In this document: positions 1,548 to 57,860 of the stretch, one piece after another | Position numbering within the stretch: the first letter of the stretch is position 1 | Layout: the number at the start of each line of letters is the position of its first letter | Virus record (IMG/VR): IMGVR_UViG_3300009158_000001 | Coordinates: 32,001 to 96,000 of that record | DNA length: 64,000 bases | Direction: 5' to 3' (one strand) | Origin: a virus | The notes under the pieces: generated by a model | What the model was told of the DNA's origin: nothing | Databases searched by the model: none | What the model saw: only the letters and a program-made list of their open reading frames with translations | Translations under genes and position numbers: made by a program

Positions 1548-4097
1548 TTATCCTATTACTCCCAAAGCAACAGATTCAATAACTGGACTATAGTAGGGCA
1601 ATAAAGACCCTATATCTTTTATATTAGAAGGAAATACAAAGTATTCATTTGTATTTAAAAATTCTTTTTTTGGAATTTCTTTCTCCAATGTAAAGTCTAT
1701 TACTTTTATGCAACTATAATCAAACGAAATAGGTGTTTGTCCAACTGTTGCAGTTTCACCAGTCTCAAACCAATTCAAACTATTGAATAGCTTTACATAT
1801 ATACGGTTAGTAGAGTAGTCAACAGAGAATACATTTAGACTTTCAGATGTTGTAGCTTTTACTCCAACCGTAAGGCTATGATTTTGGCTTAACTTTAGAT
1901 ATAAATTACTCTCATCAAAATAATAATCACCTTCATTGATAAGAACATTATCCGTAACTCGACGATCAAAAGCAAAGTCTTCTATACTCAAAGACTTTGC
2001 AAAAAAATCAGCAAGATTTAAGCTAGTATTTCTTGCTTGATAAGTTACAATTCCATCTACTTTGCTTTTATAATCAAAGTATTCTGTACTATCTGATAAA
2101 GTTGATAGCTCTTGTTGTCCATTAATATATGAAACTTCTTTTTTATTACTAATACGAACACTTCCATAGTGCAATGATATTGACTTTGGCAATTGTATTG
2201 TTCTTAAATCTATACTCATTTTGGGAAAATCTAATACCTTATCCATCAAACTAAATATTCGGAAGTTTGAGTTGAATAATCCCTCAAGAGCACCTACATA
2301 GTTAAAAGTCAAAATATTATCTGGACAATTAATGGTTTTATTCTCTGTATCTGTTTTACCTGAAACTTGTTCCGTCTCCAGGTAGTACACATCCAAAGAT
2401 CCTATTGCAGATAGACTTTGATTTAGGTAAATAATACCTTCTACTCTATCCAGAGAGTACTCATACGCTTCATAAGTTTCTTTCCTGTCAACAAGTCTCC
2501 AAGATACCTCTGATCCATCTAGCCATTTAAATATTATTTTTTGAATATACTTTTTACCTAAAATAATTTGGTCACCAGAATAAGTTGGAGACATTGACGC
2601 TATATTCAATTCTTTAGCATATTCTAGGCCTATGCTTGAGCCTAGACCATTATGCGGTATAGAGATCTGCTGCCCATATACGTAAGTAGGTATTGTGCTT
2701 AAATACAGGTCAACAGGAGTCCCAACACTTAAACTACTAAAGTAGAATGTATATCCTTCTCCTGTATACTCAGAAAAGTAATATCCATTAGCTAAGTCTC
2801 TACCCGGACTTCTAGTTTGCTTTTCGCCATTCACAGTTACTTTGAAATAGTCTTCAAGATTTGCAAACGGCAGGCTTAAAAATACTCGGTTAGAGTTTTC
2901 AACAATGTGAATAATTGTCTGTTTGTTTTCGCTTAGTAACTCTTCCACTACTTTATACTCAGCATTTTTAAATAGATATTCAGTAGGTAATCTTTTTGAT
3001 TTCTCAAATTTAGTCTTCTCTAAGTAATCAAGAGCTAATTTTAGATTTGAAATGCTACATTCAATATAAAATTCTGGATCTTTAATTGGTCCAGACAGCT
3101 TTGTATCTTTTCCTTCTAGCTTTTCAGTATTTGCTAGGATCTTAAAATCAAGAAAAGACTTTTGGCGGTTATCCAACAGAGTGTAGTCTTTGAAGAAAAG
3201 ATATTTATTGCTGAATATAGGCATACGAATAGTCTTAGCCTTTAGTTCATTCTTGTATTTTACTTTCAAAAAGCTAATCTTTTTAATATCGAATTGATTT
3301 ACTTGCTTTGGCGAAACTTTTATTTCTATATATAAAGAATCAGTTAACGCTGGTTTAGCAAGTTGTACCCAATAATCTTTAACTGACCCGTTATAAAGAA
3401 TATCTTGGTTCTGTGTATTTCTTACAAAAAGATTCACGTCTTGCCCAGCATTCTTTATATACTCAAATTCCATCTCATTTATAATTTCATTCTTGCTAAA
3501 AATAACATTTAAGCAAAGTTTTAAAGTAGCGTCATCATCTCTGAAAAAAGAAAATAAATCATTTTGATTATTGTTCCAGAGAGCTTCAATCTTTGAATTT
3601 TGAAAAGGATTACTTTCAGCGCCAATTTTTATATTAGAGTCAGATAGAATTGTTACTTTAGTCGGAATAAAACTAGTTGTCTCCAAGGCTGGAAACCAAA
3701 TTCCACTCTCATCCATCCCATATTTACTATCAGGAATAAACATATTTTTATCATTCAGAGAAAGAACAGAAATGTTGTCTTCATTAAGAAATGAGTTTAA
3801 TACTTTTTTTCTAAGAGCTAAAACGTCATAGCGATCTCTTAGAGCCTGCATTTGCGTTTCTTTTGTGTTGTAAAACTGATTAATTAAAAGTGAGACATCA
3901 TTCATATATAAAATAGAATCATTTATTTCTCTCATCATTTCACCAAATGGCGTAGAGAAATCACTAGTAATTGAACTGTATCTTTTGATAGAAGGACTTT
4001 TTAGGCTACTATCTAAAGTGTCTACGACTATATCTTGCACATCAGAAGATAGTTTTGATTCGATGTCCAGGATTTTATTTTGAATTTCTTTTAACAT
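1548..4097 (-). CDS. Hypothetical virion structural protein (distal baseplate region), 849 aa
   Basis: Long ORF, coupled by a TAATG overlap to the upstream gene. N-terminal coiled-coil-like segment followed by beta-rich sequence. Confidence 0.6.
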   Translation of the reverse strand: MLKEIQNKILDIESKLSSDVQDIVVDTLDSSLKSPSIKRYSSITSDFSTPFGEMMREINDSILYMNDVSLLINQFYNTKETQMQALRDRYDVLALRKKVLNSFLNEDNISVLSLNDKNMFIPDSKYGMDESGIWFPALETTSFIPTKVTILSDSNIKIGAESNPFQNSKIEALWNNNQNDLFSFFRDDDATLKLCLNVIFSKNEIINEMEFEYIKNAGQDVNLFVRNTQNQDILYNGSVKDYWVQLAKPALTDSLYIEIKVSPKQVNQFDIKKISFLKVKYKNELKAKTIRMPIFSNKYLFFKDYTLLDNRQKSFLDFKILANTEKLEGKDTKLSGPIKDPEFYIECSISNLKLALDYLEKTKFEKSKRLPTEYLFKNAEYKVVEELLSENKQTIIHIVENSNRVFLSLPFANLEDYFKVTVNGEKQTRSPGRDLANGYYFSEYTGEGYTFYFSSLSVGTPVDLYLSTIPTYVYGQQISIPHNGLGSSIGLEYAKELNIASMSPTYSGDQIILGKKYIQKIIFKWLDGSEVSWRLVDRKETYEAYEYSLDRVEGIIYLNQSLSAIGSLDVYYLETEQVSGKTDTENKTINCPDNILTFNYVGALEGLFNSNFRIFSLMDKVLDFPKMSIDLRTIQLPKSISLHYGSVRISNKKEVSYINGQQELSTLSDSTEYFDYKSKVDGIVTYQARNTSLNLADFFAKSLSIEDFAFDRRVTDNVLINEGDYYFDESNLYLKLSQNHSLTVGVKATTSESLNVFSVDYSTNRIYVKLFNSLNWFETGETATVGQTPISFDYSCIKVIDFTLEKEIPKKEFLNTNEYFVFPSNIKDIGSLLPYYSPVIESVALGVIG

Positions 4098-22041: not shown

Positions 22042-24378
22042 CTATTTAGTTCCACCAGTTGTAACAGGAGCCAATACTTTTTCATAGGTTGAACTACCAC
22101 CAGAAGCAATGTCTGGCGATTGCGGTGACTCATCAAAGTATTCTTGGACTTCCGTATACTCAACTAAAGAATCTCCTATCTTTGCATTCTTTGCAGGATC
22201 TATTGCTGCGATAGCTCCTGCCATCTCGCCCATCTTTGCTCCAAAGTTCATGAAAGTTAGATCCCAGTGATCTTTGAAAGTTTCAAGGCTTTTTTCCATC
22301 ATTAACCACCATGAAAGATTAGCACCATATTTAGCTCTAATTTCACTATTTTCCATTAGCTGGTCAATTTCTTTTGTGGCTAAACCCATACCGCCATCCA
22401 TAAAATATTGCTTCATGTACTGTAGTGGAGTTTTATAAATACCACTGCCAAATCCAATATTGATTCCAGCAACCATAGGAACACCTTCTTTCATCAGAGG
22501 AATAATAAAATAAGCTCTACTATCTGCTACAAAGTTCATAACAAAACTTTGGAATTGCGAACCAAATTTTGAAAATGCATAACCGCCAATTCCAATGCTT
22601 GTTATTAGACTAAAAGTAAGACCACCTTTCCAACCAGAACCAGTAAGCAAAGTCCCAATCTTAGGTATGCTTCGAATTAAATTTATACCTGCCAGACCAT
22701 TAGCAGCCAATGCTAGGCCAGCAGCTCCGCCACTAAGTGCCCCTGCAGCAAACCTAAGATCTCCCGTCCAGCTATCGTTATCCCATAGCTTACTTACTAT
22801 ATCCATTTCATATTTAATTTTTTCCACCTGCTGGTCATAACTATTAAATAGTTTTTTAAGTTGTCTTGCTGCAACACTATTGCTTACTAAACCATCTGTG
22901 TCTCCGTATACTGGTCTTTGAGCCATAGCATTACTAGCATATAGTTCTGTTTTCATCCATGCTTCATTGTATAAACCATTATGTAACATATACGGAGTAA
23001 CATCATCATTTACAACAAGAGTGTCTGGGTAAATATGAGTTATAAATCCAGTGTCAGCGCCAAACATGTGATGTACTTCTTCTACTTCAATTGGGCCACA
23101 AATATTACTGTATGTATCGTTTACCATAATTACATCATATGGGCGAATATGTGGATTTCCCATAATCAAAAGAGAACCCTTGTACATCTCTTTGGCTTGT
23201 TTAGCTAATAGAGATCTTGCATATCTCTTAGCCATTGCTTCTCTTTTTATATTAACAAACTGATAATGAGTACTACGTAAGTAAGCAGGAGATAGATCTA
23301 TACATGCATTTCTTGTAACAATATTATCGTCATTCCAACTTACAAAAATATTTGGATTTTCTGTTCCAGCAGAAGATTTGTTGAATGAGTCCGTTGCTAC
23401 ATCATCAGTTATGCTAGTTCCACCAAACTGAACGCTAACTTGAGTAAACCAGCCGTCTGCTGTTGCTTCTATTGTGTTGTTAATAATATCTGTATAGGAG
23501 TTTACATTGTGCCATCTTCTAAAAGGACGAAATCTATTTCTTACAGTTTTGATAAACTTACTTGCTAGATTTGCATTTACAACAAGATTGAATCCTTTGC
23601 CATTTGTTTGCTCTAGCATTTTGTAAACTGATAAAGATATTGATTTACTAGCACCTTCAAGGCTTGGACTTGATCTTATACCTTGTAGAGTAACACCTTT
23701 TTCTCCTGCCATCTGTCTAACATTTTCAGTCTCAGAAAAACTACTATTTGGAACCTCAACATTTCGTTTATCCACAACCTTTGACATCATAGCCATTTCT
23801 AAGAAAAGCCTATTTGCTTCAAAAATACTTGAAGGATCTCCCATAGATTCCCACATGTCCTGATCTGGAAATCCAAAAAACATAGTCATTCTATTTGACC
23901 TATAATATATTCTTGGATGCTTTACATATCCAGGATGTCTATAGGTCATCTCCTCAAATACTTCCCAGATTGTAGAGTAGTAAGTTGTGTATTTAAGATC
24001 TTCAACCGTCCAAGCTTCTGTCCAATGCTGATCACTTGTTATTAATTTTCTAGCTTTTGATGTTGGTCCATCCAAAGCAACAGGAACATTTCCAGGTTCA
24101 GGCGTCGCCGCAGGTGGCGGAGTTGCGCTTTGGCCCGGCACTGGATTAACAGCTAGAGGAGCCGAAGAGGAAGGTGCAGTCGAACCTTCGGCTTTGTATT
24201 CTCCCTCGTACTGGCCACTTGTTGGATTCCATCTCCGTGCTCCTCTGCTCCCATCAGCTCGATAAGGACCGAGAGCAGGATCATCACCTCTTTTCATAAT
24301 CTGCCAACCCATCGTCTCATCTTTTTTTTGCGCTTCAGTTGGTTCGTTTGGTTTTGTTTCTGGTGCTGGTCCTGCCAT
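22042..24378 (-). CDS. Baseplate hub protein, C-terminal portion (gp27/gpD-like), 778 aa
   Basis: STIWEVFEEMTYRHPGY and YKGSLLIMGNPHIRPYDVIMVND...IEVEEVHHMFGADTGFIT match the hub C-terminal signature. Hydrophobic Gly-rich segments lie near the C-terminus. Confidence 0.7.
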   Translation of the reverse strand: MAGPAPETKPNEPTEAQKKDETMGWQIMKRGDDPALGPYRADGSRGARRWNPTSGQYEGEYKAEGSTAPSSSAPLAVNPVPGQSATPPPAATPEPGNVPVALDGPTSKARKLITSDQHWTEAWTVEDLKYTTYYSTIWEVFEEMTYRHPGYVKHPRIYYRSNRMTMFFGFPDQDMWESMGDPSSIFEANRLFLEMAMMSKVVDKRNVEVPNSSFSETENVRQMAGEKGVTLQGIRSSPSLEGASKSISLSVYKMLEQTNGKGFNLVVNANLASKFIKTVRNRFRPFRRWHNVNSYTDIINNTIEATADGWFTQVSVQFGGTSITDDVATDSFNKSSAGTENPNIFVSWNDDNIVTRNACIDLSPAYLRSTHYQFVNIKREAMAKRYARSLLAKQAKEMYKGSLLIMGNPHIRPYDVIMVNDTYSNICGPIEVEEVHHMFGADTGFITHIYPDTLVVNDDVTPYMLHNGLYNEAWMKTELYASNAMAQRPVYGDTDGLVSNSVAARQLKKLFNSYDQQVEKIKYEMDIVSKLWDNDSWTGDLRFAAGALSGGAAGLALAANGLAGINLIRSIPKIGTLLTGSGWKGGLTFSLITSIGIGGYAFSKFGSQFQSFVMNFVADSRAYFIIPLMKEGVPMVAGINIGFGSGIYKTPLQYMKQYFMDGGMGLATKEIDQLMENSEIRAKYGANLSWWLMMEKSLETFKDHWDLTFMNFGAKMGEMAGAIAAIDPAKNAKIGDSLVEYTEVQEYFDESPQSPDIASGGSSTYEKVLAPVTTGGTK

Positions 24379-30500: not shown

Positions 30501-31898
30501 ATAATAACCGTGATCAGCCAAATTACTGCCATCAGGCTTTTTAGCTATAATTTCCTTACCAGTAAATTCTGTTCGATCAGTCGCATCTCTTATCTCAGCA
30601 AACATACTACTATTTATTGGTACAAAATAATCTCCAAAGAAATTAATTTTACCAGCTCCATCTATAGCATCATTGCCTCCAGATGACGACTTCCCAGCCC
30701 CTAATGTTTCGGATTTTTTTAAAGCATCATTCTCTTCTTGAGTCATATTAGATGGAAATAAAACATTTTTAAATAATCTTAATTTAAAATTCTTAAGTCT
30801 AAGTCGAATTCCATTTCTTATACCTTCTGCGACAACCGGATCAACAGTAATATTTTTAAACTCATTCCATCTTAAATAGACCCGATCTCCAAGATTTTGC
30901 TCAGTAGAGTTATAAGGTGAAATTTGAGTACAATCAAAAACTTCTCCATTGCCTATATTTTTTTGTTTATGCCGGGAATAAAGCCAATCTATATAGGCTT
31001 TATATGGCTCCGACTCTCTTGCAAATTGAGTTCTTTCAGGATTAAGCATAAAGTTAATATCTAACTTATGTAAACTTTCTGCCGTTTGATAGGCAGGATC
31101 AACCATATAGACAGCATCGCCTGGAGGTTCATTGCCTGCAAGTAAGGCAGCATTTATACCCGCGATATAAGTTGAATCATCACGTGTGTTCATAAACCAT
31201 CTTTCTAGGTTGTCTAAGACAAATGCTTTCTTGTTTTCTTCTGTTAGATAAGGATTCCTGTTAGGAAGATTAATTTCATTTACATCTTCAAAGCTTTGTC
31301 CACCTTTACTAATCCAATTTTTTTTGTAATGCCAAAAGTCGCTATAACAAGCATAACTCATTGGAGTAAAAGTTAGTGTTCCTAGGATTGTATCTGGTTC
31401 GCCTGGAGAAGTTGTTAAAGCTAGATTGTGCATGCAAAATACCATATTATGGAAAATAGGTATTTTTAACTTTGTTCTTAGGGTTGCATTCTCAATAACA
31501 GAAAACGGGGTATTTTTAAACTGAAGAATAAGATCTAATATTCCGCCGCGTTTCCCGCTATTATTGCCAGAAGTGTGGTCGTCTCTTGAGTCAATATTTC
31601 TAATTGAACTTTTTCCTGGCAAAGTAAAACTAACAGAAAAGATTTCGTTTGCAATACCAACAGGAAGTTTGTCACTATTTCTTGAGCGAACTGACTGAAC
31701 AGTCATATAGTTATTTTCTTCTGTAGAAGAAATTTTCTCAGGAGGAATAATAAATTGTAAATCATTAATAAAAAATGCATGATTAATATGGGAGTACTCA
31801 GTCCCATAATCACTCCAAGTAACTAAATTACCCTTATCATTTTTAAATGATAACTGTAGAATATCAAAATCTTCTAATTTCCAATTGTCATTAGCCAT
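24513..31898 (-). CDS. Giant tail-tip/hub protein with an M23 metallopeptidase domain, 2461 aa
   Basis: M23 motifs HKGID (30483-30497), FWHL and HLH (29961-29969). The C-terminal region has hub N-terminal character (KIKVCLGFSND...EVFLGEITDV...ITAQSYGAEL). Confidence 0.75.
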   Translation of the reverse strand: MANDNWKLEDFDILQLSFKNDKGNLVTWSDYGTEYSHINHAFFINDLQFIIPPEKISSTEENNYMTVQSVRSRNSDKLPVGIANEIFSVSFTLPGKSSIRNIDSRDDHTSGNNSGKRGGILDLILQFKNTPFSVIENATLRTKLKIPIFHNMVFCMHNLALTTSPGEPDTILGTLTFTPMSYACYSDFWHYKKNWISKGGQSFEDVNEINLPNRNPYLTEENKKAFVLDNLERWFMNTRDDSTYIAGINAALLAGNEPPGDAVYMVDPAYQTAESLHKLDINFMLNPERTQFARESEPYKAYIDWLYSRHKQKNIGNGEVFDCTQISPYNSTEQNLGDRVYLRWNEFKNITVDPVVAEGIRNGIRLRLKNFKLRLFKNVLFPSNMTQEENDALKKSETLGAGKSSSGGNDAIDGAGKINFFGDYFVPINSSMFAEIRDATDRTEFTGKEIIAKKPDGSNLADHGYYFHKGIDIMPSYPANNRDVTVPIFTPFKIRITENTCFSEIAYDVAIYNGGYSPEKQVVIRGKKTWKRVIYSTQAIAWELDAYKYRFEVYRFSNENHKGLSGSKGNSIIGEILDGPFRGKKIRFWHLAAMAPEGVSRTNPIFETFIDTWTKNFGPGAVLEAGQWIGAFLGGTAVDESSPHLHVELGGEDTGHGSLYDRIDITPLLKNATSKPPKDIINAYYKLKPENRHGLPEEEATYELLNDLRGKNLKGKPGNTEGIIKSAVKFALENGANSNWRKLTNSNTDKPYESYDEYLTANEEEITKNRDLHPWEFYGLQVRTLEQAGWYLYEGDLTNFDLFYREHILELVSGNDAESRQMQDPLICDFISATSSNNFKMLNVQGIMAPTAQFLGSQDDTFLLSMKGFGLNSIKQLEVIRDTLRKQGVMFKHIPEAYSLRVENNFINAFGNVYFVINGIEMAAVPEQPNVYACEMRLTANDISIKQQVLKKESVVGNQEIKESFLKEFLGGSDYNPDGLFPPGTARTKEQEDAYEATLVVAQNYQQERKKKGLPYIERKKAIIDNEEQYILTLNVDLTPANKQTDVYLSSNKYLLEVLAHINMVNNLFPKDSYYQDANTELAAIEVGVNGVTQEDIDQIKLRERYIFTDEGFITYIPDKRITNLYAPWLQPTKARDAAYMDSSMMFYYKSYPEHAYISLIPNATVDYVSFVIESNPFLGRVAPPAWDWMLERPGTMLNNDLTDTVLRPFAFINWKDGTGSYQRAYGTWLTQLAGLAKTDSKQAEGAAAAAGLVQIEGLGESCHIPGTFYPYLMAHRNVLALAQNTRAIRRFYDISLIIKNDNANKTINGDIREALKDFKWFLTSDAGKAIGVFLLQEAVTYIGLYALEAATVGLATPILVAKAANSAARAAEIAKLVKGAAALEKVGNLAVKEARAAKAVKAYQKSAALREGLRASAEEAAKKGFLGRYWWHRKNASALQASASGWAKAARIGTKLAIAGTAGFTSFTSIMERIEAERNTEQHAPFYDYFYVFDQTKQGRRPWGEDILDSRANGKLIYQETFKFEYEKEQEIIDIDNMTLYSVSLSNGYENFLKALDKLPKGGRLSQDKLPSEVTGINGLFTEVESDSFDLDSGTVEQLSTGFFGGVGPAQQSTPLFKKLHVEAGQASLIGQDFIDYIWEALAIPYLNNVLRFSDIQRVVRYTDWFPETKKLLSKVSADLTAPSYDDLELPHHPYWNALGANGLSNKLRGSSFTDPDFYLANPGIDYFGGEEVGPDMSDYVVAVEAVNPDNLPEGTQKPVAGQKVGEALGKGYEGDNRVFVPGVSMSEFRNLFIDVNFEKCLGEMQGLATVETSPRRIFKQRKFQAEGASFTTINNPNITAMSRTEEDENAFTSSRRNVCSEYLSRFNAASSHKMSSDGKTRVPIASAGAVAADGDGVESIASPNVVSWNDLSLMFGDNLDLLSPLAGGLNPKDPIFGNKVLNYSYQQYDSLGTEYYLNMVRSNFLLRQNQEATEDVTAGFKPEKLLRPRAGNLGTDKDGNNLTDATGKNKDDKMPSSDTLAKIDEIRAKIKAGMLVWEPLVFDYTGSSQTSLAAGGAGAYAQTAQFRTPMKIKVANALKSINRPKLAARRAFPVVKVFFFEEDEIFSKQWLSFDEVFSYSKIESLNISDSRKRPAAICTITFSDVNGLLSGFNQFNKASSSAQPSVDEASLFGQEDRNPITADTVLEQNEYNFSIAPGLKIKVCLGFSNDSNKLEEVFLGEITDVQMEGMSSRMSITAQSYGAELVAQIKGAKSEWGSASEPLSFDTTFSTLASLMFSSEVVHFGKRRLDDIVMFGEDQSLEKHMQQYKETVNLGALYNSGRKGGSVGWIGRMSDSTMADSAGWNATGGMTAAARQKGISPLEGPQDDNIFAPNPNASQIMMWSDSAGRWVSGVFGNVQVTDDAAYFKSAAVYDNEYIPGVVFDEFAATSAAQAQLEQQVVMPPAPAPAPAPAPAPGTP
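24529..24564. repeat. 6 x 6-bp tandem repeat GCAGG(T/A/C) encoding the (Pro-Ala)6 tail
   Basis: gcaggt gcagga gcagga gcaggt gcagga gcaggc read directly from the sequence. Confidence 0.9.
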
Positions 31899-34800
31899 TA
31901 TAGTTTCCGCTCCATGTCAGAAGGTACACTGTATGTAGTGTTTATGTTTAGTCCAATACTTGAACCCGGAATTGCTTGGCGTAAAGACCTAGCATATTCT
32001 ACAGGATTGGTTCTATCAAGATTGAGACTTCTACTAGATATTCTAGCAGTTGCGCCATCTAAATATGACTTTTTCATTATACTTGTTGGTGCAGGAATAT
32101 TTGATTCTGAATAATCTGCGCCTAAAGCATCTGCCATATCCATACTTTGCCTACGATAACTATCACTGACAAGCGATCCACCACCAGTCAATGGTTGCAT
32201 TTGAGCATTACTATTCATTCCATAATTAGAAGGTGGTGGCGGTATATCACTTAATGGCTCATCATCATAGCCTTTAGTAAAGAGTGCATATAGACCAGCC
32301 ATTGCAGCCGCACCAATTCCAACAGTTCTAGCAAATTTATTCTCAAGTAAACCTTTAGCATCTTCTGCGCCAATAGACATTTCACTTCTCATTGACCTAA
32401 CAAAGTTTGCTTCAGCATTTACATTTCTTGTTTCCTCACTTATTCTAGAAGGAGCTGGCATAGGGGCAGGAGCTGTCTCAGCTTCATCAGCAAGCGACCC
32501 CATTGCTGTGTCAAGCCCCCCTCCTCCTTGGCGTGCCTGTGCCTTGTCAATCTCAGCTTGGTTACCTGCGGCAAGTCTTTGTTGAGCATCACTCATTTCA
32601 TTTGTTTTTTCTTCATAAAGACTTCTAAGATCAGCTTTTTCTCTTTCTCTTTGCTCAGGAGGAAGAGCATTTATTGATGAATTTAAAAGAGCAGTTCTTT
32701 CTGCTGCAGGTGCGCTAGCAAACGCAGCTTCAAAAGACCCATGATCTCCGGACGATAAAGCTCTAAGAACAGTAGTAGGCTCAATATCTTCTGCTTTTTT
32801 ACTTGCCTCTAAAGTACTTTTTGTAACTTTAGCTCTTGATAAACCTGAGGTTAATCCTTCCATTTGTTCAGGTGTTCTTTGAGGTAAAAGATAGTTAGAC
32901 TTTTGGCCATCTTTATCAGTGTAAAAGAATGAATCAAAAAACTCAGTGAAATAATTAGATCTTTTTTCTGGATTAGGCTCTGAGAGAATACGACCTACTG
33001 ATTCGGAGAATACGCTACCAAGTGTTCTATCAAGATGCTTAAAGCCAACCGCATTTTGTTCCATCTTATTAGCAAACACAGATAAGTCTTCTGCTTCTGT
33101 TCTTGTTATTGCCCCAGTCTCTTCAAGTATTCTTTTTATAAATCTTATTTCTTCTGCAGCATTAGAAGTTTGACCAATCTCAGACTGGCCAGACCATTTC
33201 ATAAATGCCTTCTGGACTTCACCTAATTCAAGGCTACCATTAGCTCCAAGTTTATCCTTAAGAGAATCTTTAATTATTGGATCAAATGCATTTTGACTTA
33301 TGTTATAGGATCTTTGTTGGTTAAACTGTTCTTTCATTGGCTCATCAGATGTTAAATCTCTAAGTTTTCCGTATGCCTCTTCGACCCCCTCAGGAGTGTT
33401 TAAAAGATGCTCATCTTCGGAGCTAACCTCAATCATTTTTGTTAAAGCAGCATCATGGTCAAAGTCGGCCGATGTTTTATTAGTGACGTTGCCACCCATT
33501 CTAACAAACTCTGCACCAGGAGTATCTTTTGATACAGTCTGGCCATTAGATATCCATTCTCCATATGCAGGAATTGATACACCACCTGCTTGGTCCATTT
33601 TAGGATTATATCTACCAGAGTATACACTCATAAACTCAGGACCAATGGAAGGAGGCTGTCCTGACATCATAGGCATGTCAGCTTTGCCAGCTAGTACATC
33701 CGCTCTGTATTTATTCAAATACGCAACTTCATGTTCGCGGCCAGCTGCTTGTGCTTTTTTTATTCTTAAATCAAAACTTTCATCTATTCGACTTCTTGAC
33801 AGGCCCATCTGATAAGGCTGCATATGAGTAGGCAAACTTTTATTTAATTCAGCTCCATAGACCGTTTCATATTTTGCTCCACTAATTCCACCTTCTAAAA
33901 GATGTGTTGTGATTCCAATACTTTCTTTATTCAAATCACCTTTAAATTCTCCAAACGCGCCATGTAATAGCTGAACAAGGTCATCGTCGATATTTTCCAT
34001 GTTCTTTTCAAGCATGTCAAAAATTCTACCAATGATATTCTTTAGTTTTAAATCTTCAGTTAATCTTGCTGATCTAGAATCTTTTACAGTAGAGGCGTTT
34101 AGTAGATTAGCAGAAGGAAGATACTCCATAGTATTTTCGGAATATTTTACAAACCCTCCAGTCTGTCTAAGCTGTTCAAGAGTTCCTCTTCTTTTTGCCA
34201 TTTCAGTTGCATATAATTCATCTGGTATTTTTGCACTAAGATCTAAGACTGTGTCTGAACCAACTTTACCAGCCTCTCCAACTGGCTGACTGCCAACTCT
34301 ATTTGCCATTTCTTGTACAGAAGATACATAAGCAGGATCTAGAGGAGTAATTCCTTGAAGAGCCTGATCAAAAGCAAGCATGTGTCGTTTACGGTATGGA
34401 CTGCCTTCTGCTGCAATAGTACTTCTTGTAGAGTCGTAAATCTCTTCTACGTAACGTCTTTCAAGCTTAGCGTCATTGTTAGAATCCAATGAGAAATCAC
34501 GACTTGTTTGAACATTCAATCCAACAACGGCAGGAGATGATTCAATTCCAGCCATAAGACTTGCTTGGTGTTCTTTATTGAATCCTAAAGCTTTTAACAT
34601 ATTTGTCGTTGCAGCTTGCTGGCCTTCCATCATTTCTGCTAAGCCAGGAAAGCCAGTACCTTTTTGTTCTAACCCAAAAATTAATCCATATACAGCTTCT
34701 TGATATGGTCTACGTTGATTATTAGGAGTGTTAATTTTTAAATGCTGATTTACTTTCTTAAGCATTACAAGTAGTGCGTTAGTATCTTTTTCAGAATAGC

Positions 34801-37759
34801 GTGCCCCTTGCAAAGCCTGTGCTGCCGCGTGAAAGTCTTGAAGTGTATTTTTAAATCCTTTTATATATTTTTCCTGTGCAGGTACAGGCAACTTCGAGTC
34901 TACTGATGCAATTTGTTTATAGAAATCTGAATCTACTAACATATCATCTGCAGGTAGTACCGCATCAAGCGTTGATCCGGTAAACTTACTTGTAGCATAT
35001 TGCTGTTGGCCACGAATTGCTAATGTATTACCCTCTTTATATATTTCTTTACCTTCTGCAATATGCGAAACATCTTCTGTTAGAGATTCAGCAGCAACAT
35101 TATAAAGATTTCTTTGCTCATCAGTTAAAGGACCCATTGCGGAGTCATCTCTTATCTGACCAAGAACTTGTTGTTTATTTCTTTGTATTGCTTCTTCTCT
35201 GGCTGGATTAGTTGCCATGGCATCTAGTTCATTTGTTCGCTCTAAGTTAACTTGAGAAACAGTCTTATCAAGATCATTCTTCCTTGCTCTTTCAAGTTTT
35301 TCTAACTCTTCCTCTCTAATACTTCTGGTCCATTGCCCTGTTGTACTTTCTTCTTCATATCTAGCTAGGCGCTTTTTGTGTCGCTCTTCAGCTTTAGCTT
35401 TCTCTTCTTTTACCTTTGCATCGTACTTTGCATTGATGTTAATAGTCTCTTCAGACTCAACATCAGCAATTGCAGAAAAAAGATGTTGGTTAGTTTTTGT
35501 ACCGCCTTCTAGCTTTCCTGCTCCTGCAGGCACTTCTCTGCCAAAAGCAAGTTTATAGCCACCTTCAATTGGGATAACATCTTGAAGTAGCACTCTTCCT
35601 TGAGAAGCTGTTCCTCCCGCATCAACAAAAGTATTTTCTATTGTTCCGTTGTTTAAGCGCCGACGACCAAGAGCTTCTCCTTCTGAAAAACCAACACCTG
35701 ATCTTTCTTGCATATCGAAAATCATTCTTTGTCTTTGCATAGGATCAGCGTCGCCTAAAGCATCTACTTCCTCTAAGAAAGGTTGTAACTTTGGATTGTA
35801 TTCAAAAGGATAACTTTCAGTTCCCGTTTCAATGCTAGTTCGTCTTCCTGGTCGAATGAATGTTCCTTCAACTTGTTCAGCATTAGGATTAATTAGACCT
35901 CTTGAACCTTCAAGGAAAATCTCAGGACTTCTTGCTTGGCCTCTAGGAGTAGAGAAAACAGCGCCAGTAACAAATGGCTCAAGTCCACTTTGAAGCATTC
36001 CTTTAAACGCACCACTTCTAAATGGATAAGCATCTAAAAGCATTGCCTTTGAACCCATAGGATTACCTATAACACGCGCCTGATTACCTACACGCGAAAG
36101 TGCTGTTCTGCTACCAGGATTAACAACAGTTAAAGGGTTATTAAGATGTCTATTAGTTCTTCTGCCAAGTGGAATTACACTTACAGGCTTAACTCCACCT
36201 GCAGTATTTTCTAATTCTCCAGCAAAAGTACCCATATAGATACCAGCTTCTGGTCCATTCATTCCTGCCTCTGCCCAGTGGTAAATTCCTTTATCACCTT
36301 GCTTTGCACCTGCTACTGGAAAAAGAGAAACACCTTGGGCTTGTGCTATTTTTAAATGTGCGTTAAACCGCTCAACAGGTTCAATGCCTACAATACTTCT
36401 CTCTTCTTGCATAAGGATTTGCGAATGTTTTCTTGCCACTGCAACTAAAGGATTTTTTGTTGGATCTATCTCTTCCATGTATCGAATAGCTTCATCAGAG
36501 CTTTCAGCTGACGAGAAAAGAATCTCTTCTGCAGATCTAACTTTTCCAGCTTCTAAGGCTTCAGCTACATCTAAGTATTTACCAGTTTGAGGATTCCAAA
36601 TATTATCGTGACCTGTTATTGCTGGAGTTGAAGCAATGTCAGTTCCAGTATTATCAATGTTAATGACTTTGCCAACTGGCGAGTACATGCTTGAACCAGA
36701 TTTTCCTCTGAAGTAGATATGCCCCTGAGCCTTGCCTTGTTCACCAACAAAATAATCTCCTGCCTCTCCTAGTGGTAAATTAATTTCACCACTATTAACT
36801 CTTACTCTTGCATATCTAAATGAACGAGGAGCTGCACCTTCTGGCTGACCAAACGAACTCATAATTTCATATATGTCGCCTTGACCAGGATTAAACTGGA
36901 ATCTTCCCCCTAATTTAGATTGAAGTGCTTTCTGGTATTCGCCTAATTTTGCTTGCTCTGCTTGTGTAAGAGAGGCAAGAGATAAGTCTCTTGTGCTAGT
37001 TGGCATTTTGTTAAATTTATCAAAACGAGACATTGCACTCATAACTTGATTTCCATTATCAAGTCTTAGTCCTATAGCTGCAGGTATTTTATCTGAAGCT
37101 CTACTTGCGTTTAAGAAACGAGTATTTGATCTGTGATAGTAATCAAAAATATTTCCAAGGCCTTCTACGCTAGCTTCTGCCGCTTGGCGAAAACTTTCAA
37201 GCATACCTATAGTTTCTGCATAAGTAGCGCCCATTAAGCGACTCTTTATATTGCCAATAAGTTTTTCATTACGAGGATCAGACACGAATCCAGAAAGACG
37301 CTTATCGCCATTGATCATATCAAGAACAGACTTCTTAGCTGCCGTTAATGAAAGAATTGCGCCTTCAGCTTCTCTCCCTAGATACATAACATTATTTAAT
37401 GCATTGTTCTGTGCTCTTGCCGCTTGCTCTGCAGTTGCCCCTACAAAGCTTCCCGCTTGAGTTGTGCCATATTCTTTAATCCTATCTAGAACTTCAGAAG
37501 TTACGGTTGACTGCAACTTTAGAATCTGTTCGCTGAAACTTAAAGCCTTATTACTCCCCATCCTTCCTCTTGCCTGAGAAACCATCGAGAAGAATGTAGT
37601 GTTGGGTCTAGGTGGGCTAGCAGGAAAAGATGCAAAGCCAGGACTAAGTAGCATTCTTGCAACTTGAGGTGTAAGTTCAGCACCAGTTGCTTTACCCGCT
37701 TCCTTTGTTGCCATACTCCCGTATAATATAGCACCTAAACTTGTTAAGAACTCTTGCAT
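31898..37759 (-). CDS. 1953-aa tail-module protein; putative virion-carried single-chain two-barrel RNA polymerase(-like) protein
   Basis: ADFDHD (DxDxD at 33452-33466), preceded by GQPPSIG and followed by EIGQTSNAA and QNAVGFKH; upstream GAGKLEGGTK; C-terminal hydrophobic helix. Confidence 0.55.
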   Translation of the reverse strand: MQEFLTSLGAILYGSMATKEAGKATGAELTPQVARMLLSPGFASFPASPPRPNTTFFSMVSQARGRMGSNKALSFSEQILKLQSTVTSEVLDRIKEYGTTQAGSFVGATAEQAARAQNNALNNVMYLGREAEGAILSLTAAKKSVLDMINGDKRLSGFVSDPRNEKLIGNIKSRLMGATYAETIGMLESFRQAAEASVEGLGNIFDYYHRSNTRFLNASRASDKIPAAIGLRLDNGNQVMSAMSRFDKFNKMPTSTRDLSLASLTQAEQAKLGEYQKALQSKLGGRFQFNPGQGDIYEIMSSFGQPEGAAPRSFRYARVRVNSGEINLPLGEAGDYFVGEQGKAQGHIYFRGKSGSSMYSPVGKVINIDNTGTDIASTPAITGHDNIWNPQTGKYLDVAEALEAGKVRSAEEILFSSAESSDEAIRYMEEIDPTKNPLVAVARKHSQILMQEERSIVGIEPVERFNAHLKIAQAQGVSLFPVAGAKQGDKGIYHWAEAGMNGPEAGIYMGTFAGELENTAGGVKPVSVIPLGRRTNRHLNNPLTVVNPGSRTALSRVGNQARVIGNPMGSKAMLLDAYPFRSGAFKGMLQSGLEPFVTGAVFSTPRGQARSPEIFLEGSRGLINPNAEQVEGTFIRPGRRTSIETGTESYPFEYNPKLQPFLEEVDALGDADPMQRQRMIFDMQERSGVGFSEGEALGRRRLNNGTIENTFVDAGGTASQGRVLLQDVIPIEGGYKLAFGREVPAGAGKLEGGTKTNQHLFSAIADVESEETININAKYDAKVKEEKAKAEERHKKRLARYEEESTTGQWTRSIREEELEKLERARKNDLDKTVSQVNLERTNELDAMATNPAREEAIQRNKQQVLGQIRDDSAMGPLTDEQRNLYNVAAESLTEDVSHIAEGKEIYKEGNTLAIRGQQQYATSKFTGSTLDAVLPADDMLVDSDFYKQIASVDSKLPVPAQEKYIKGFKNTLQDFHAAAQALQGARYSEKDTNALLVMLKKVNQHLKINTPNNQRRPYQEAVYGLIFGLEQKGTGFPGLAEMMEGQQAATTNMLKALGFNKEHQASLMAGIESSPAVVGLNVQTSRDFSLDSNNDAKLERRYVEEIYDSTRSTIAAEGSPYRKRHMLAFDQALQGITPLDPAYVSSVQEMANRVGSQPVGEAGKVGSDTVLDLSAKIPDELYATEMAKRRGTLEQLRQTGGFVKYSENTMEYLPSANLLNASTVKDSRSARLTEDLKLKNIIGRIFDMLEKNMENIDDDLVQLLHGAFGEFKGDLNKESIGITTHLLEGGISGAKYETVYGAELNKSLPTHMQPYQMGLSRSRIDESFDLRIKKAQAAGREHEVAYLNKYRADVLAGKADMPMMSGQPPSIGPEFMSVYSGRYNPKMDQAGGVSIPAYGEWISNGQTVSKDTPGAEFVRMGGNVTNKTSADFDHDAALTKMIEVSSEDEHLLNTPEGVEEAYGKLRDLTSDEPMKEQFNQQRSYNISQNAFDPIIKDSLKDKLGANGSLELGEVQKAFMKWSGQSEIGQTSNAAEEIRFIKRILEETGAITRTEAEDLSVFANKMEQNAVGFKHLDRTLGSVFSESVGRILSEPNPEKRSNYFTEFFDSFFYTDKDGQKSNYLLPQRTPEQMEGLTSGLSRAKVTKSTLEASKKAEDIEPTTVLRALSSGDHGSFEAAFASAPAAERTALLNSSINALPPEQREREKADLRSLYEEKTNEMSDAQQRLAAGNQAEIDKAQARQGGGGLDTAMGSLADEAETAPAPMPAPSRISEETRNVNAEANFVRSMRSEMSIGAEDAKGLLENKFARTVGIGAAAMAGLYALFTKGYDDEPLSDIPPPPSNYGMNSNAQMQPLTGGGSLVSDSYRRQSMDMADALGADYSESNIPAPTSIMKKSYLDGATARISSRSLNLDRTNPVEYARSLRQAIPGSSIGLNINTTYSVPSDMERKL

Positions 37760-37777
37760 TGTAAATACCCGCTATTC

Positions 37778-44269: not shown

Positions 44270-45325
44270 TTATGGCTTGACTATTGGGGGAAGTTCAGGT
44301 GCCGCATCCCCTCTAGCAATATCTTTTATAGGTCGTTCTGGCTTAGCTACCGCCGTTCCACCTGTTTGGTTTGTTTTGGCTGCTTCTGTTGCGGTTGCCG
44401 CTGCCGCTGCTGCTGCTGGTGAAGCAGGCTCGGCCTTTGCCGCTTCGGCTTGGGCGGCAAGAATACTATCATAATCAGTTTGTCCGCTTCCATTTCTAGC
44501 AAGAACTTCTTTTGATCTTGCCATAAATTTATAGGTTTCCATTATTGGTTGGTCATCAGACATAATCTGTTGTGCTTCGCCAATAAAATGAACATCTCTA
44601 AGTATAACAGTCGAGGAGTTCATATAAGATGTGATACCATTTGCCATAGATGTTATATTTGGATTACCATAAGTAATAATTATATTCAAAGGCTTGTTTA
44701 CTCCGCCAGCCCTTGAAAACTGGTCAGGTCTATGAAGACTTCCGCTGTCCGATAGCGCCTTGCCATAGCCTCCCGATAATCCAAAATATGACTTTTGAGC
44801 ATCGTTCAGGTTTCGTTCACTTAAACTTCCATGTAAGCCACCACTATTAGCTAATAGACTTGTAGTTCCATCTGGAGTCGTATTATTTGTAATAGTACCT
44901 GCAGTTAAATTTGCAACCATATCTGTCTGAAGGCTTTGATTGGCAAATAAACCATCAAGCATTGCGGCATCACCAGGATGATTGCCCATGTTGTCATATG
45001 ATCTTAGTAAACTAATCAATTTTTTCTTTCCATTTAGCTCAGGAAAATCGCCTGCAGAAAAAGTAAAATCTCTTGGTAGCTCTGAATAATATTTTTGCAA
45101 AACATAACTCAAATATTGAGGATGTTGAAAGTTAATATAAAGTTGACCTAATACAATTACTTGACCATCAGCCACCCCATCATAGTATAAACTGTTATAG
45201 CCATAAATTGGTCTTTTGTTTTGTGATACTTCCCATGAAATACCAAAAGCATTTGTTATAAGAGCAGAGCCAATTGTTAATGATACATTTGCTCCAGTAT
45301 ATGCAGTTGCTACTGACTTAGCCAT
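44270..45325 (-). CDS. Tail tube-like protein (paralog 3), 351 aa
   Basis: YTGANVSLTIG...ISWEVSQNKRPIYGYNS...ADGQVIVLGQLYINF aligns by eye with the tube N-terminus. Confidence 0.7.
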   Translation of the reverse strand: MAKSVATAYTGANVSLTIGSALITNAFGISWEVSQNKRPIYGYNSLYYDGVADGQVIVLGQLYINFQHPQYLSYVLQKYYSELPRDFTFSAGDFPELNGKKKLISLLRSYDNMGNHPGDAAMLDGLFANQSLQTDMVANLTAGTITNNTTPDGTTSLLANSGGLHGSLSERNLNDAQKSYFGLSGGYGKALSDSGSLHRPDQFSRAGGVNKPLNIIITYGNPNITSMANGITSYMNSSTVILRDVHFIGEAQQIMSDDQPIMETYKFMARSKEVLARNGSGQTDYDSILAAQAEAAKAEPASPAAAAAAATATEAAKTNQTGGTAVAKPERPIKDIARGDAAPELPPIVKP

Positions 45326-45367: not shown

Positions 45368-46420
45368 TTATTTTAAATATCCATCTCTAAAACGGTTGAT
45401 AGTGCCTTGTTGATATGTGGCAGTACGACGGGTATTCCTCTTGCCATTCATAGGGATTCCTTCAGGATTAACTTCATTATGCGCAATAGCACTATCAGCT
45501 TCCATAATTGCATTATATTTATAAACTTCTTCTTGAATTTCTCTTCTTTGCTCTGGGGTGTTAGAGCTTGAATTAGCTGGAGCAGGACTTACTATCGCTG
45601 GAGTTGCTGTAGTAGGTTCAGTCGCAGCCTTAACACTATCAACTAAGACAGGCTCAAGTCCACTATCAAATGCATTTGCAAAGCTAAAGGTGCTATTTGC
45701 TGTACCAATTGTACCTTCAAAATATCTTATATTTGAAGCCATATACTGATATTGAACTTCAGTGTAAATGTCTTCAACTGAAAGAGTACTAGAGTCATGA
45801 ATAATCTCAATATCTTCTAGAATAATTTTACCCATATGTCCAGCTTCATTTATCATCGTAATAATAATATCAAACGGCGGAAGATCAGAAGGTTTTACTA
45901 CTTCTCCTAGATAATTTGTATCCCAAGAAAAATCCCAGATTTTTCTATTCTTCTCTGGCTCTGGAGCCCCAGCATTACTCTTTCTTTTAGTAATGTATTC
46001 AGCGTCACCAGACGCATAACCTAGAAGTCCACCTCTATCCCATGTAACATCAACATCCCCTTTTAATGGAAATTCGTAATTATCATTAAATACATGGGTA
46101 TGTAACTGGTTAAATATTAATGTACCAGCAATAGTTCGGCCACCTCTTGCTACTGCAATTGGATTTTTAAATCCTAATGCCTTTACAGGTGTTTTAGTGT
46201 TATAAGTTGAAATTGATATAGTCTGTAAAGTTCCAATTCTAAAAATTCTTGCACTGTTTTTTCCTTGATACTGAGGCAACATAATTGTTGCTGAAATATC
46301 GCATCCAGAAAATCCAAGATTATTACCTGCTGCAGTAAAACTCTCAAATAATCCATCCCTTATAGTAGGAGGTTTCTTTGGCGGAGTATCTGTTTGGACG
46401 GTTGGACCGGGAGGAGCCAT
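45368..46420 (-). CDS. Tail tube-like protein (paralog 2), 350 aa
   Basis: FSGCDISA...LQTISIST...PVKALGFKNPIAVARGGRTIAGTLIF...DLPPFDIII is clearly homologous to the 212-aa tube. Confidence 0.8.
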   Translation of the reverse strand: MAPPGPTVQTDTPPKKPPTIRDGLFESFTAAGNNLGFSGCDISATIMLPQYQGKNSARIFRIGTLQTISISTYNTKTPVKALGFKNPIAVARGGRTIAGTLIFNQLHTHVFNDNYEFPLKGDVDVTWDRGGLLGYASGDAEYITKRKSNAGAPEPEKNRKIWDFSWDTNYLGEVVKPSDLPPFDIIITMINEAGHMGKIILEDIEIIHDSSTLSVEDIYTEVQYQYMASNIRYFEGTIGTANSTFSFANAFDSGLEPVLVDSVKAATEPTTATPAIVSPAPANSSSNTPEQRREIQEEVYKYNAIMEADSAIAHNEVNPEGIPMNGKRNTRRTATYQQGTINRFRDGYLK

Positions 46421-46622: not shown

Positions 46623-47261
46623 TTACTCGCTGATAGTAACAGCACCGCTAGCAGTTCTGTCAATCTTGAAGCGACTATCTTTCTGAGTTGTCCAACGAGT
46701 AACCGCACGAGCAAGATATGTTGTTTGCATATCAGCCTGGCGATCTTCAATACCCATACCCCAGCCTTCATTCATAAGTTCAACACCATGAATAACGCAC
46801 TTAGCAGCAATACCCATTTCATTTAATGCACTAACAGTGACATCAAAAGGAGGAAGCTGATCGGCATAGAAAGCCTTTGAAAGCTTACCCATTGAGTCTG
46901 GCTTGGCAGCAGAGTCTCCTAGCGATGGACGAGTTGGACCAGCTGTTGAACTAAAGTCCATTGGATTTGGCTCGTAAATCTTTTGAACAAACTTGCCAAG
47001 TGCGCTACCCTCATCCTCGATATTGAACTGCTCAAGAATAGCATGTGTATCAAACTGAATAAAGATTAGTGAACCAGCAATACCACGCTTGCCGCGTGAG
47101 AAGGCGCGAGGGTTGGCCTCACCTAGTACGTAGATTGGGGCCTTTTCGCGCTGAATAGCATAGGAAACCGCCATAAGGTTACCTACTTCATTGTTCGCAA
47201 AGACAGCCTTAATATCAGCTCCTGAGAAACTGTTGTGTGCTCTTGTAAGAAAATCAGACAT
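46623..47261 (-). CDS. Tail tube protein, 212 aa
   Basis: Directly follows the sheath; SFSGADIKAVF...REKAPIYVLGEANPRAFSRGKRGIAGSLIF...DQLPPFDV; AAGGAG RBS; codon usage of a highly expressed gene. Confidence 0.85.
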   Translation of the reverse strand: MSDFLTRAHNSFSGADIKAVFANNEVGNLMAVSYAIQREKAPIYVLGEANPRAFSRGKRGIAGSLIFIQFDTHAILEQFNIEDEGSALGKFVQKIYEPNPMDFSSTAGPTRPSLGDSAAKPDSMGKLSKAFYADQLPPFDVTVSALNEMGIAAKCVIHGVELMNEGWGMGIEDRQADMQTTYLARAVTRWTTQKDSRFKIDRTASGAVTISE

Positions 47262-57047: not shown

Positions 57048-57860
57048 TTAGACTTTCACATCTAGTGGGTTAAACTTTCCTGAAACAAAGCCAGAACGCA
57101 CTTGCTGAACAAGATAGTTCTCAGCTTTATTTATATCATGATTTCGTAATTCCTTATATTTACTAGCGACTCTGCGCTCTACAGATGTATAGTATTCTTC
57201 TGTGGTATCCATTGCGTCTTCGATGGTGCTAACATCAAGCTTCTTGCCAAGTTCTTTGAGCTCAGAAGAATCTTCAATAATAATTTCTTCTGACTCTGAA
57301 CTGTCAGCAATTTCACTTACTATCTCTTCGACAGAGTCCATTGGTCCACTCATTTCTTCTTTGATTTCATCGGCAGGAGATTCGCTAGGAATTTCCATGC
57401 CAGCAGCCTGAAGAGAAGCTCCAAGTTGCCACTGCCATTTCTGGTGCATATCAATACGCTCAGCAAGAAAGTTAGCAACACCCTGCTCATTTGCAGCATT
57501 GGCAGCATCAAAGGTACCCTTGAGCATAGCAATCATAGCTACATTCTTCTTGTAAATATCAAGAGCAAGGTCTTTAGCTTCAGTAGTCATAGAGTCATCT
57601 TTGAATGACGCCGTCTCTACCATGTGAGTAAGAGAAGGAGGGAATGCCCCAAGCTTGCGAATATTCTCAGCAAGATCATCTACTGAGCCGTATACATCAT
57701 CATAAATATTGCCAAATAGCTCATGGTACTCAGCAAAATCTGGGCCAGCCACATTCCAATGGGCACGATGCGCAGTGAAGTAAAAAACAACTACGTTGCA
57801 AAGTAGGTCTTCAAGAGCATCAGCGACAGAAGTCGCGCCGGTTGTCATTTCAGTTTCCAT
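57048..57860 (-). CDS. dps: Dps (ferritin-like DNA-protection protein) with an acidic C-terminal extension of about 115 aa
   Basis: AHWNVAGPDFAEYHELFGNIYDDVYGSVDDLAENIRKLG carries the Dps ferroxidase His/His/Asp/Glu; C-terminal helix HQKWQWQL; GGAGG RBS. Confidence 0.9.
   Translation of the reverse strand: METEMTTGATSVADALEDLLCNVVVFYFTAHRAHWNVAGPDFAEYHELFGNIYDDVYGSVDDLAENIRKLGAFPPSLTHMVETASFKDDSMTTEAKDLALDIYKKNVAMIAMLKGTFDAANAANEQGVANFLAERIDMHQKWQWQLGASLQAAGMEIPSESPADEIKEEMSGPMDSVEEIVSEIADSSESEEIIIEDSSELKELGKKLDVSTIEDAMDTTEEYYTSVERRVASKYKELRNHDINKAENYLVQQVRSGFVSGKFNPLDVKV

Follow-up and report, generated by a model that had tools for sequence, protein, structure and literature searches.

We analyzed a 64,000-nucleotide window from an uncultured phage, whose IMG/VR record is 174,107 bp long and has direct terminal repeats; the window covers bases 32001-96000. 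We concentrated on a giant gene of the tail operon, P0001. This gene (31898-37759, minus strand) is an open reading frame (ORF) uninterrupted over 1953 codons, and its product is probably a single-chain two-barrel RNA polymerase that fills the tape-measure place in a contractile-tail operon, is carried in the virion and is ejected for early transcription. Two-barrel RNA polymerases that travel in the virion are known in crAss-like podoviruses, and one group of Thermus siphoviruses has them as fusions to the tape measure protein. In a comparison that did not take in 23 published family alignments, we found no contractile-tailed phage for which such an enzyme had been described, and we regard this as a new setting. 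A sequence-only reading of the same DNA had proposed a virion-delivered polymerase on the basis of short motifs, all of which we recovered at their positions when we checked them against the translation.

Predicted two-barrel fold of P0001

Residues 520-1700, modelled with AlphaFold2 from a 17-sequence alignment and without templates (mean pLDDT 75, pTM 0.67), contained two β-rich modules, at aa 596-759 and 1296-1442, with helical domains between them. The region is thus predicted to form two β-barrel modules and helical domains, not the extended helix of a tape measure protein, and the all-helical fold that the sequence-only reading had named as the counter-case did not appear. A Foldseek search of the PDB with this model gave no match at E ≤ 1e-3; about 42 of the best 50 matches were RNA polymerase β′, QDE-1 or the polymerase of phage AR9. 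Along the chain, matches to second-largest subunits came first and matches to β′/Rpb1 followed, while QDE-1 and, like it, plant RDR2 aligned over both modules. The earlier claim that the motifs lie in the correct order in one chain agrees with this N-to-C succession of β and β′.

A second model, of residues 1280-1690, reached pLDDT values of 85-96 over the barrel. The best 50 PDB matches of this domain model were all β′-type chains, with Foldseek probabilities up to 1.00. All seven rows returned from the ESM Atlas were Rpb1/β′ clusters, four of them full-length with TM scores of 0.50-0.54 by query over about 295 aligned residues. BFVD gave two significant matches (E 3.6e-4 and 6.4e-4), and the lower matches there included pieces of giant crAss-like phage proteins, LEF-9, RNA polymerase subunits of giant viruses and a piece of a phi14:2 'Structural protein'. 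The barrel region scored higher against β′/Rpb1 than against QDE-1. Alignments with RNA polymerases covered 220-260 residues and reached into the following helices, compared with 80-110 residues for generic double-psi β-barrel (DPBB) proteins. According to these models, P0001 has a β′-type DPBB with a DxDxD loop, at the site where the sequence-only reading had called for one, and an upstream β-type barrel with a conserved basic residue; polymerase catalysis is an inference.

Arrangement of the chain

All parts of P0001 described here lie on the minus strand. The N-terminal region (aa 1-530, 36170-37759) is conserved in the family, for example at A317, P329 and Y349, and has no Pfam match. The β-like barrel module (aa ~596-759, 35483-35974) can be aligned with RNA polymerase second-largest subunits, cellular as well as viral, and contains GYKLAFGR...GKLEGGTK (aa 734-755, 35495-35560), which resembles the β motif GDKxxxRHGxKG and ends in GAGKLEGGTK (aa 746-755, 35495-35524). 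The paired lysines K749 and K755 had been proposed as the two basic catalytic residues of this barrel. The alignment of 17 members upholds only the first of the pair: K749 is invariant, whereas K755 varies. Two other residues, K736 and R741, are semi-conserved.

A long, mostly helical connector of roughly 540 aa (aa 760-1295, 33875-35482) follows and includes a helical hairpin of about 100 aa. Its invariant residues are Q918, Q919, F1028, E1100, R1102 and P1215, and in the model it aligns from about aa 1156 onwards with the N-terminal portion of β′. The β′-like DPBB is predicted at aa ~1296-1442 (33434-33874). Within it, MMSGQPPSIG (aa 1364-1373, 33641-33670), with the invariant P1370, is the putative counterpart of RxPxLH in β′ and lies about 60-68 aa upstream of DFDHD. 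The Arg of the RxP motif had been described as replaced by Gly; the aligned residue is Gln1368. NKTSADFDHD (aa 1427-1436) contains the predicted Mg2+-binding catalytic loop DFDHD (D1432, D1434, D1436; 33452-33466, NADFDGDQMAVHV), which is directly followed by a β-strand, as in β′ (strand 158-163 of the domain model).

Two helices follow the barrel. The first, a long helix with GQSEIGQTSN (aa 1514-1548, 33116-33220; helix 235-269 of the domain model), is a candidate bridge helix. It includes EIGQTSNAA (aa 1527-1535, 33155-33181) and is near-invariant in the family alignment at G1524, Q1525, G1529 and S1532, giving the pattern GQxEIGxxSN. The second (aa 1553-1572) leads into EQNAVGFKH and forms with it a candidate trigger-loop element (aa 1553-1575, 33035-33103) in which Q1568, F1573 and K1574 are invariant (QxxxxFK); MEQNAVGFKH itself spans aa 1566-1575 (33035-33064). 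E. coli β′ 344 to ~935 aligns with 10 to 295 of the domain model, a regional and not a per-residue correspondence. Closer to the C-terminus, where the sequence-only reading had noticed a hydrophobic helix, is a conserved, moderately hydrophobic Ala/Gly-rich helix (aa 1809-1827, 32279-32335, FARTVGIGAAAMAGLYALF), about 130 aa from the end. The C-terminal module after it (31901-32278) is strongly conserved (KGYDDxPLxDxPPPP ... NIPAPT ... ATARIS ... DRTNPxEYA ... PSDMERxL) and has no Pfam match; it may be the end that attaches to the tail or hub.

Conservation of the putative active site

The bare DxDxD motif occurs at chance level: there are 16 copies in the 55,643 aa of ORFs of this phage, and the expectation for 1953 aa is 0.56, with a probability of about 0.43 of finding at least one. 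Conservation and fold carry the signal, and not the presence of the motif. A word-indexed search found three relatives of P0001, and an exhaustive HMMER search of 1.84 billion representatives with a profile of residues 560-1700 found 19 homologues, most of them 1600-2300 aa long and none annotated. A search for related loci added three more IMG/VR loci of ~175 kb. We aligned 17 full-length members, which have a median identity of 24% and a minimum of 16%. Just 25 of the 1953 columns (1.3%) are invariant, and these include D1432, D1434, D1436, K749, P1370, Q1568, F1573 and K1574. The Asp triad, on whose conservation the earlier proposal had hinged, is unchanged in 17-18 homologues, including those with as little as 16% identity. 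Around it the family has the consensus TxKxSxDxDGD, which is the canonical motif (DxDGD); only P0001 and P0002, a relative that is 93% identical to it, have His at motif position 4. At the RxP-type position ~60-65 residues upstream, most members have QxPxIGPE and the most distant ones QRSPTIT, SRNPNLI or SRSPADS. The Arg position itself is occupied by Gln in 12 of 17 members (P0001, with Q1368, and 11 others) and by Leu in P0020; four distant members and the fragment P0022 do have Arg there.

Standard searches did not place the protein. Neither the whole of P0001 nor its parts matched Pfam or PHROGs, phmmer and profile searches of PDB sequences gave no match to it, and tblastn of P0001 found none in 50,697 GenBank phage records. 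PF00623 (RNA_pol_Rpb1_2) and PF05183 (RdRP) had no match in the whole genome at E ≤ 10, the P0001-family profile had none in the full genomes of 0305phi8-36, Moorella MTATph1, ME3 and P23-45, and Protein Atlas language-model look-ups for P0001 were uninformative. By sequence, P0001 represents a separate family, below curated Pfam cut-offs and outside the gp96, gp66, YonO/RdRP and Rpb1 families.

The tape-measure slot and its relatives

Almost all genes of the window are on the minus strand, and PHROG matches to portal, capsid and a 993-aa tail sheath protein place P0001 among the genes of a contractile-tailed phage (myovirus), in keeping with the sequence-only reading. The tail operon runs from the sheath gene through three tube-like paralogues, a 172-aa gene and a 348-aa gene to three giants: P0005 (37778-42628, minus strand, 1616 aa), P0001 and the hub-like P0006 (24513-31898, minus strand, 2461 aa). 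An 18-nt gap separates the P0005 stop from the P0001 start, and the TAA stop of P0001 overlaps the ATG of P0006 as TAATG. The gap (37760-37777, GAATAGCGGGTATTTACA) has no Shine-Dalgarno-like sequence, which may reflect a host with weak Shine-Dalgarno usage.

By its terminase, this phage lies close to Moorella phage MTATph1, Bacillus phage 0305phi8-36 and Acinetobacter phage vB_AbaM_ME3. The genes for sheath, tube paralogues and chaperones are followed in 0305phi8-36 by the trio gp145/gp146/gp147 and in ME3 by the trio ME3_35/ME3_36/ME3_37. P0005 is homologous to the virion proteins gp145 (BLASTP 1e-14) and ME3_35 (1e-15), and P0006 is homologous to ME3_37 (BLASTP 3e-6) and, less strongly, to gp147 (1e-3, a weak match), two proteins that carry a baseplate hub annotation. 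Because these flanking giants are homologous, P0001 lies in the gp146 slot; by synteny it takes the tape-measure place itself and is not, as had been proposed, encoded beside the tape measure gene. The record of gp146 reads 'hypothetical tape measure protein; identified as virion protein by mass spectrometry', and the detection of the protein of this slot in virions strengthens the case for virion delivery of P0001. The tape-measure function of the gp146 slot was assigned from a correlation with tail length, and the gp146 gene diverges fast (Hardies et al., PMC2147016). On contigs of distant family members the same order is found, with genes for ~350 and ~1500-1600 aa upstream of the P0001 homologue; a gene for 2700-3200 aa follows on two distant contigs, and several smaller ORFs lie there on a third.

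P0001, gp146 and ME3_36 share the slot, and each has a hydrophobic helix rich in Ala and Gly that lies 118-140 aa from the C-terminus. They differ in sequence: we detected no BLAST or hidden Markov model similarity between any of them, and local alignments of their C-terminal 200 aa were not significant (z 0.4-3.0). In addition, gp146 differs from P0001 in having no DxDxD, and neither gp146 nor ME3_36 is described as a polymerase in the database records examined. ME3_36 (L017:22173-26984; 'hypothetical protein', 1603 aa) contains GGDHDQDQAAV with SREPAQG ~40 residues before it, and both strings are invariant in six ME3_36 relatives. The BFVD match to the P0001 barrel domain at E 6.4e-4 belongs to an uncharacterised protein of ME3 that is entered there in pieces of 802 residues. 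The match appears to be the second half of ME3_36, since pieces of this size fit 1603 aa. An hhalign comparison of the P0001 and ME3_36 families (E 0.0043, probability 8%) misplaced the Asp motif, and we did not use it as evidence of homology. ME3_36 is a candidate polymerase that is accessible to experiment.

Comparison with known two-barrel polymerases

The closest precedent for P0001 is gp96 of Thermus phage P23-45 (PDB 8h2m). In this tape measure protein of 5002 aa, an active two-barrel virion RNA polymerase makes up the N-terminal ~1100 residues; it transcribes pre-early genes including the gene of a second, non-virion polymerase (PMC10770324). P0001 resembles gp96 in having a single-chain two-barrel core with DxDxD inside a protein in the tape-measure position, and hydrophobic or membrane segments occur in the same or an adjoining protein in both cases. 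The likeness extends to an apparent second, unrelated-looking RNA polymerase (gp64 in P23-45, a candidate YonO-like stretch of a 3763-aa ORF, P0024, here) and to the proposed role, pre-early transcription by an ejected enzyme. On the other side, no specific sequence or structure relationship links P0001 to gp96 or gp64. When the P0001 family was compared by hhalign with residues 1-1200 of gp96, the DFDGD stretch was all that aligned (probability 0.5%), and this result was likewise set aside.

The virion protein gp66 of phi14:2 (Nature 2021) is also a giant (~2000 aa) encoded in a virion module, with DFDxD and a non-Gly fourth residue as its sole sequence hallmark, and it is active with DFDID (bioRxiv 10.1101/2020.03.07.982082). 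It too is invisible to standard profile searches and has a two-barrel core with a bridge helix and a trigger loop, of which P0001 has candidate elements. The two proteins differ in that gp66 belongs to a podovirus and has a QDE-1-like core, whereas the P0001 barrel is closer to β′/Rpb1 and its family consensus is the canonical DxDGD; they have no sequence similarity.

With cellular β/β′, QDE-1 and YonO, P0001 shares a β-like barrel that precedes a β′-like one, DxDGD as the consensus of its family, a candidate motif of the RxP type upstream of it and, within the first barrel, a basic residue, and the helices after its second barrel align with the bridge-helix region of β′. It differs from cellular β/β′ in carrying both barrels in one chain, and from all of these enzymes in lacking profile membership in PF00623, PF00562-type and PF05183 families and in having large N- and C-terminal extensions without a known fold.

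Alternative explanations

Several observations count against a packaged and active polymerase, and they favor one or the other of two alternatives. P0001 could be an active two-barrel polymerase that is not packaged and instead serves late genes or has an RNA-dependent, primer-making or replication role, its place in the tail operon being incidental. For the P0001 family the case for virions is one of gene position, enzymes of the QDE-1 type have both DNA- and RNA-dependent activity (PMC9508822), and the possible second RNA-polymerase-like domain in the 3763-aa ORF would allow a division of labour between the two. We consider this explanation rather unlikely. The place of the gene between homologues of a virion protein and of a hub protein is conserved, with translational coupling, in every relative examined, and the hydrophobic helix and end domain are conserved as well, an architecture common to the virion protein gp146. 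Moreover, a polymerase first made with the late tail proteins would be of little use unless it was carried to the next cell, a logic that holds for N4, crAss-like phages, phiKZ and P23-45.

P0001 could also be a structural tape measure or tail-lumen protein that retains a catalytically dead polymerase shell and acts as a plug, spacer or membrane-channel component. It does lie in the tape-measure slot, it has His at motif position 4 and Gln for the RxP Arg, and the slot needs no polymerase, as its occupant in 0305phi8-36 lacks the motif. This, however, fits poorly with the columns that have stayed invariant at 16-30% identity: few as they are, they include the Asp triad, P1370, K749 and QxxxxFK, which argues for selection on an active site and not on a scaffold. 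Most members have the canonical DxDGD and some have RxP, and gp66 works with a non-Gly fourth residue. We regard a dead shell as unlikely. For the same reason, the presence of the catalytic motifs among so few invariant columns, an inactive relic is unlikely. That caveat had been attached to the original proposal, and the His and Gln substitutions behind it are real features of P0001, but it is weakened by the restriction of the His to P0001 and P0002, by the family consensus and by the activity of gp66 with DFDID.

It is highly improbable that P0001 is no polymerase at all, with the predicted DPBB and DxDxD coinciding in a large tail protein of some other function, for example a metal-dependent enzyme of a different kind. 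That a DPBB arose by chance is very unlikely, the matches extend well beyond the barrel, the second module matches the partner subunit in the right N-to-C order with QDE-1 and RDR2 covering both, and the motifs are spaced as expected (a P-containing motif, ~60 aa, DxDGD, a strand).

Proposed role in infection

If P0001 is a virion-carried polymerase, as we think probable, it would be made late along with the tail proteins and built into the virion via its C-terminal module. Its likeliest place would be the tail lumen or the hub region, as for tape measure proteins. Contraction of the sheath would expel it ahead of the DNA, and it would then, with no need of the host polymerase, transcribe the incoming genome's first genes, with the D1432-x-D1434-x-D1436 loop binding the catalytic Mg2+. 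Packaging and ejection, and the choice of the genes to be transcribed, are proposed here by analogy with the systems compared above.

Neighboring genes and a candidate second polymerase

P0005 has a Gly-rich hydrophobic region at ~aa 420-560, and a cluster with Gly-zipper_Omp is among those closest to it in the Atlas; the protein may act on membranes during ejection. The N-terminus of P0006 matches a PHROG annotated 'endolysin'. P0006 and the next protein (22042-24378, minus strand, 778 aa) match different parts of phrog_20474 ('endolysin', a 1954-aa profile) and of phrog_8809, which looks like the splitting, in this phage, of what is a single giant hub/lysin protein in other phages. An M23 peptidase in P0006, prompted by an HLHVE string, was dropped for want of a Pfam match. 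A common C-terminal docking domain of the giants was dropped as well: P0001, P0005, P0006 and the 3763-aa ORF have no mutual similarity, and none resembles gp96.

The three paralogues just after the sheath gene (44270-45325, 45368-46420 and 46623-47261, minus strand) all match phrog_9206 ('major head protein'). This label looks mistaken, since their position and a comparison with gp140/gp141 of 0305phi8-36 would make them tail tube paralogues. A 270-aa protein (57048-57860, minus strand) encoded between the portal/protease region and the capsid genes matches phrog_3636 'DNA binding protein' (E 7e-22). Outside the window, in a block upstream of the terminase gene, a 437-aa protein (L004:17606-18919, minus strand) has a sub-threshold match to PF21769 'Virion DNA-directed RNA polymerase domain' (E 0.0034), and a 1329-aa protein (L004:13604-17593, minus strand) has a staphylococcal-nuclease domain (PF00565, E 1.3e-12).

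The 3763-aa ORF P0024 also lies outside the window (G000 115269-126560, plus strand, equal to L005:69-11360). It has several transmembrane segments, a Lys/Arg/Ala-rich stretch, a weak trypsin-like match below the Pfam cut-off and a C-terminal HIRAN domain (PF08797, E 3.5e-8). At ~aa 2420-2960 we noticed strings like those of YonO and cellular RdRPs, namely DGTNLMSDELA, IRR..FKGM, TRIP and GGDDDD. Searches of the genome with PF05183, PF00623 and PF00940 gave no match, the 3763-aa ORF included, and its region 2300-3100 had no PDB or Pfam match. The 0305phi8-36 lineage encodes a polymerase of the RdRP/YonO family, orf99 (PMC2147016), and judging from these strings the 3763-aa ORF may be its counterpart, a second and perhaps non-virion polymerase.

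The sequence TCCT(G/T/A)CGTC is present in 15 copies flanked by GGC/GCC or GGCC/GGCC stems, all on the plus strand, at G000 127008-167099. All but one of these (14 of 15) fall in the early region that starts just after the 3763-aa ORF, the remaining copy being at 167099; three further copies elsewhere have no stems. The 15 hairpin elements are candidate promoters for one of the two phage polymerases.

Implications

More tentatively, and with the odds somewhat against it, the proposal might be extended to the 0305phi8-36-like phages, an old lineage with large genomes and contractile tails to which ME3 and these ~175-kb phages belong. The tape-measure-slot protein would then be a single-chain β/β′-like polymerase threaded through the tail and ejected first; it would start a cascade with a YonO/RdRP-like enzyme (orf99, or the domain in the 3763-aa ORF) and might read the 15 hairpins. 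The cultured phage ME3 makes the polymerase idea directly testable. Giant 'hypothetical' tail proteins without a Pfam match can be enzymes, and in the present case it was the conservation of a five-residue motif, not its presence, that was informative. A folded polymerase core of ~130 kDa would need to be stored in, or pass through, the tail tube, a physical question that can now be approached. If the extended reading is true, tape-measure-linked virion transcription would be ancient and repeatedly used in sipho- and myoviruses, and not an oddity of Thermus phages.

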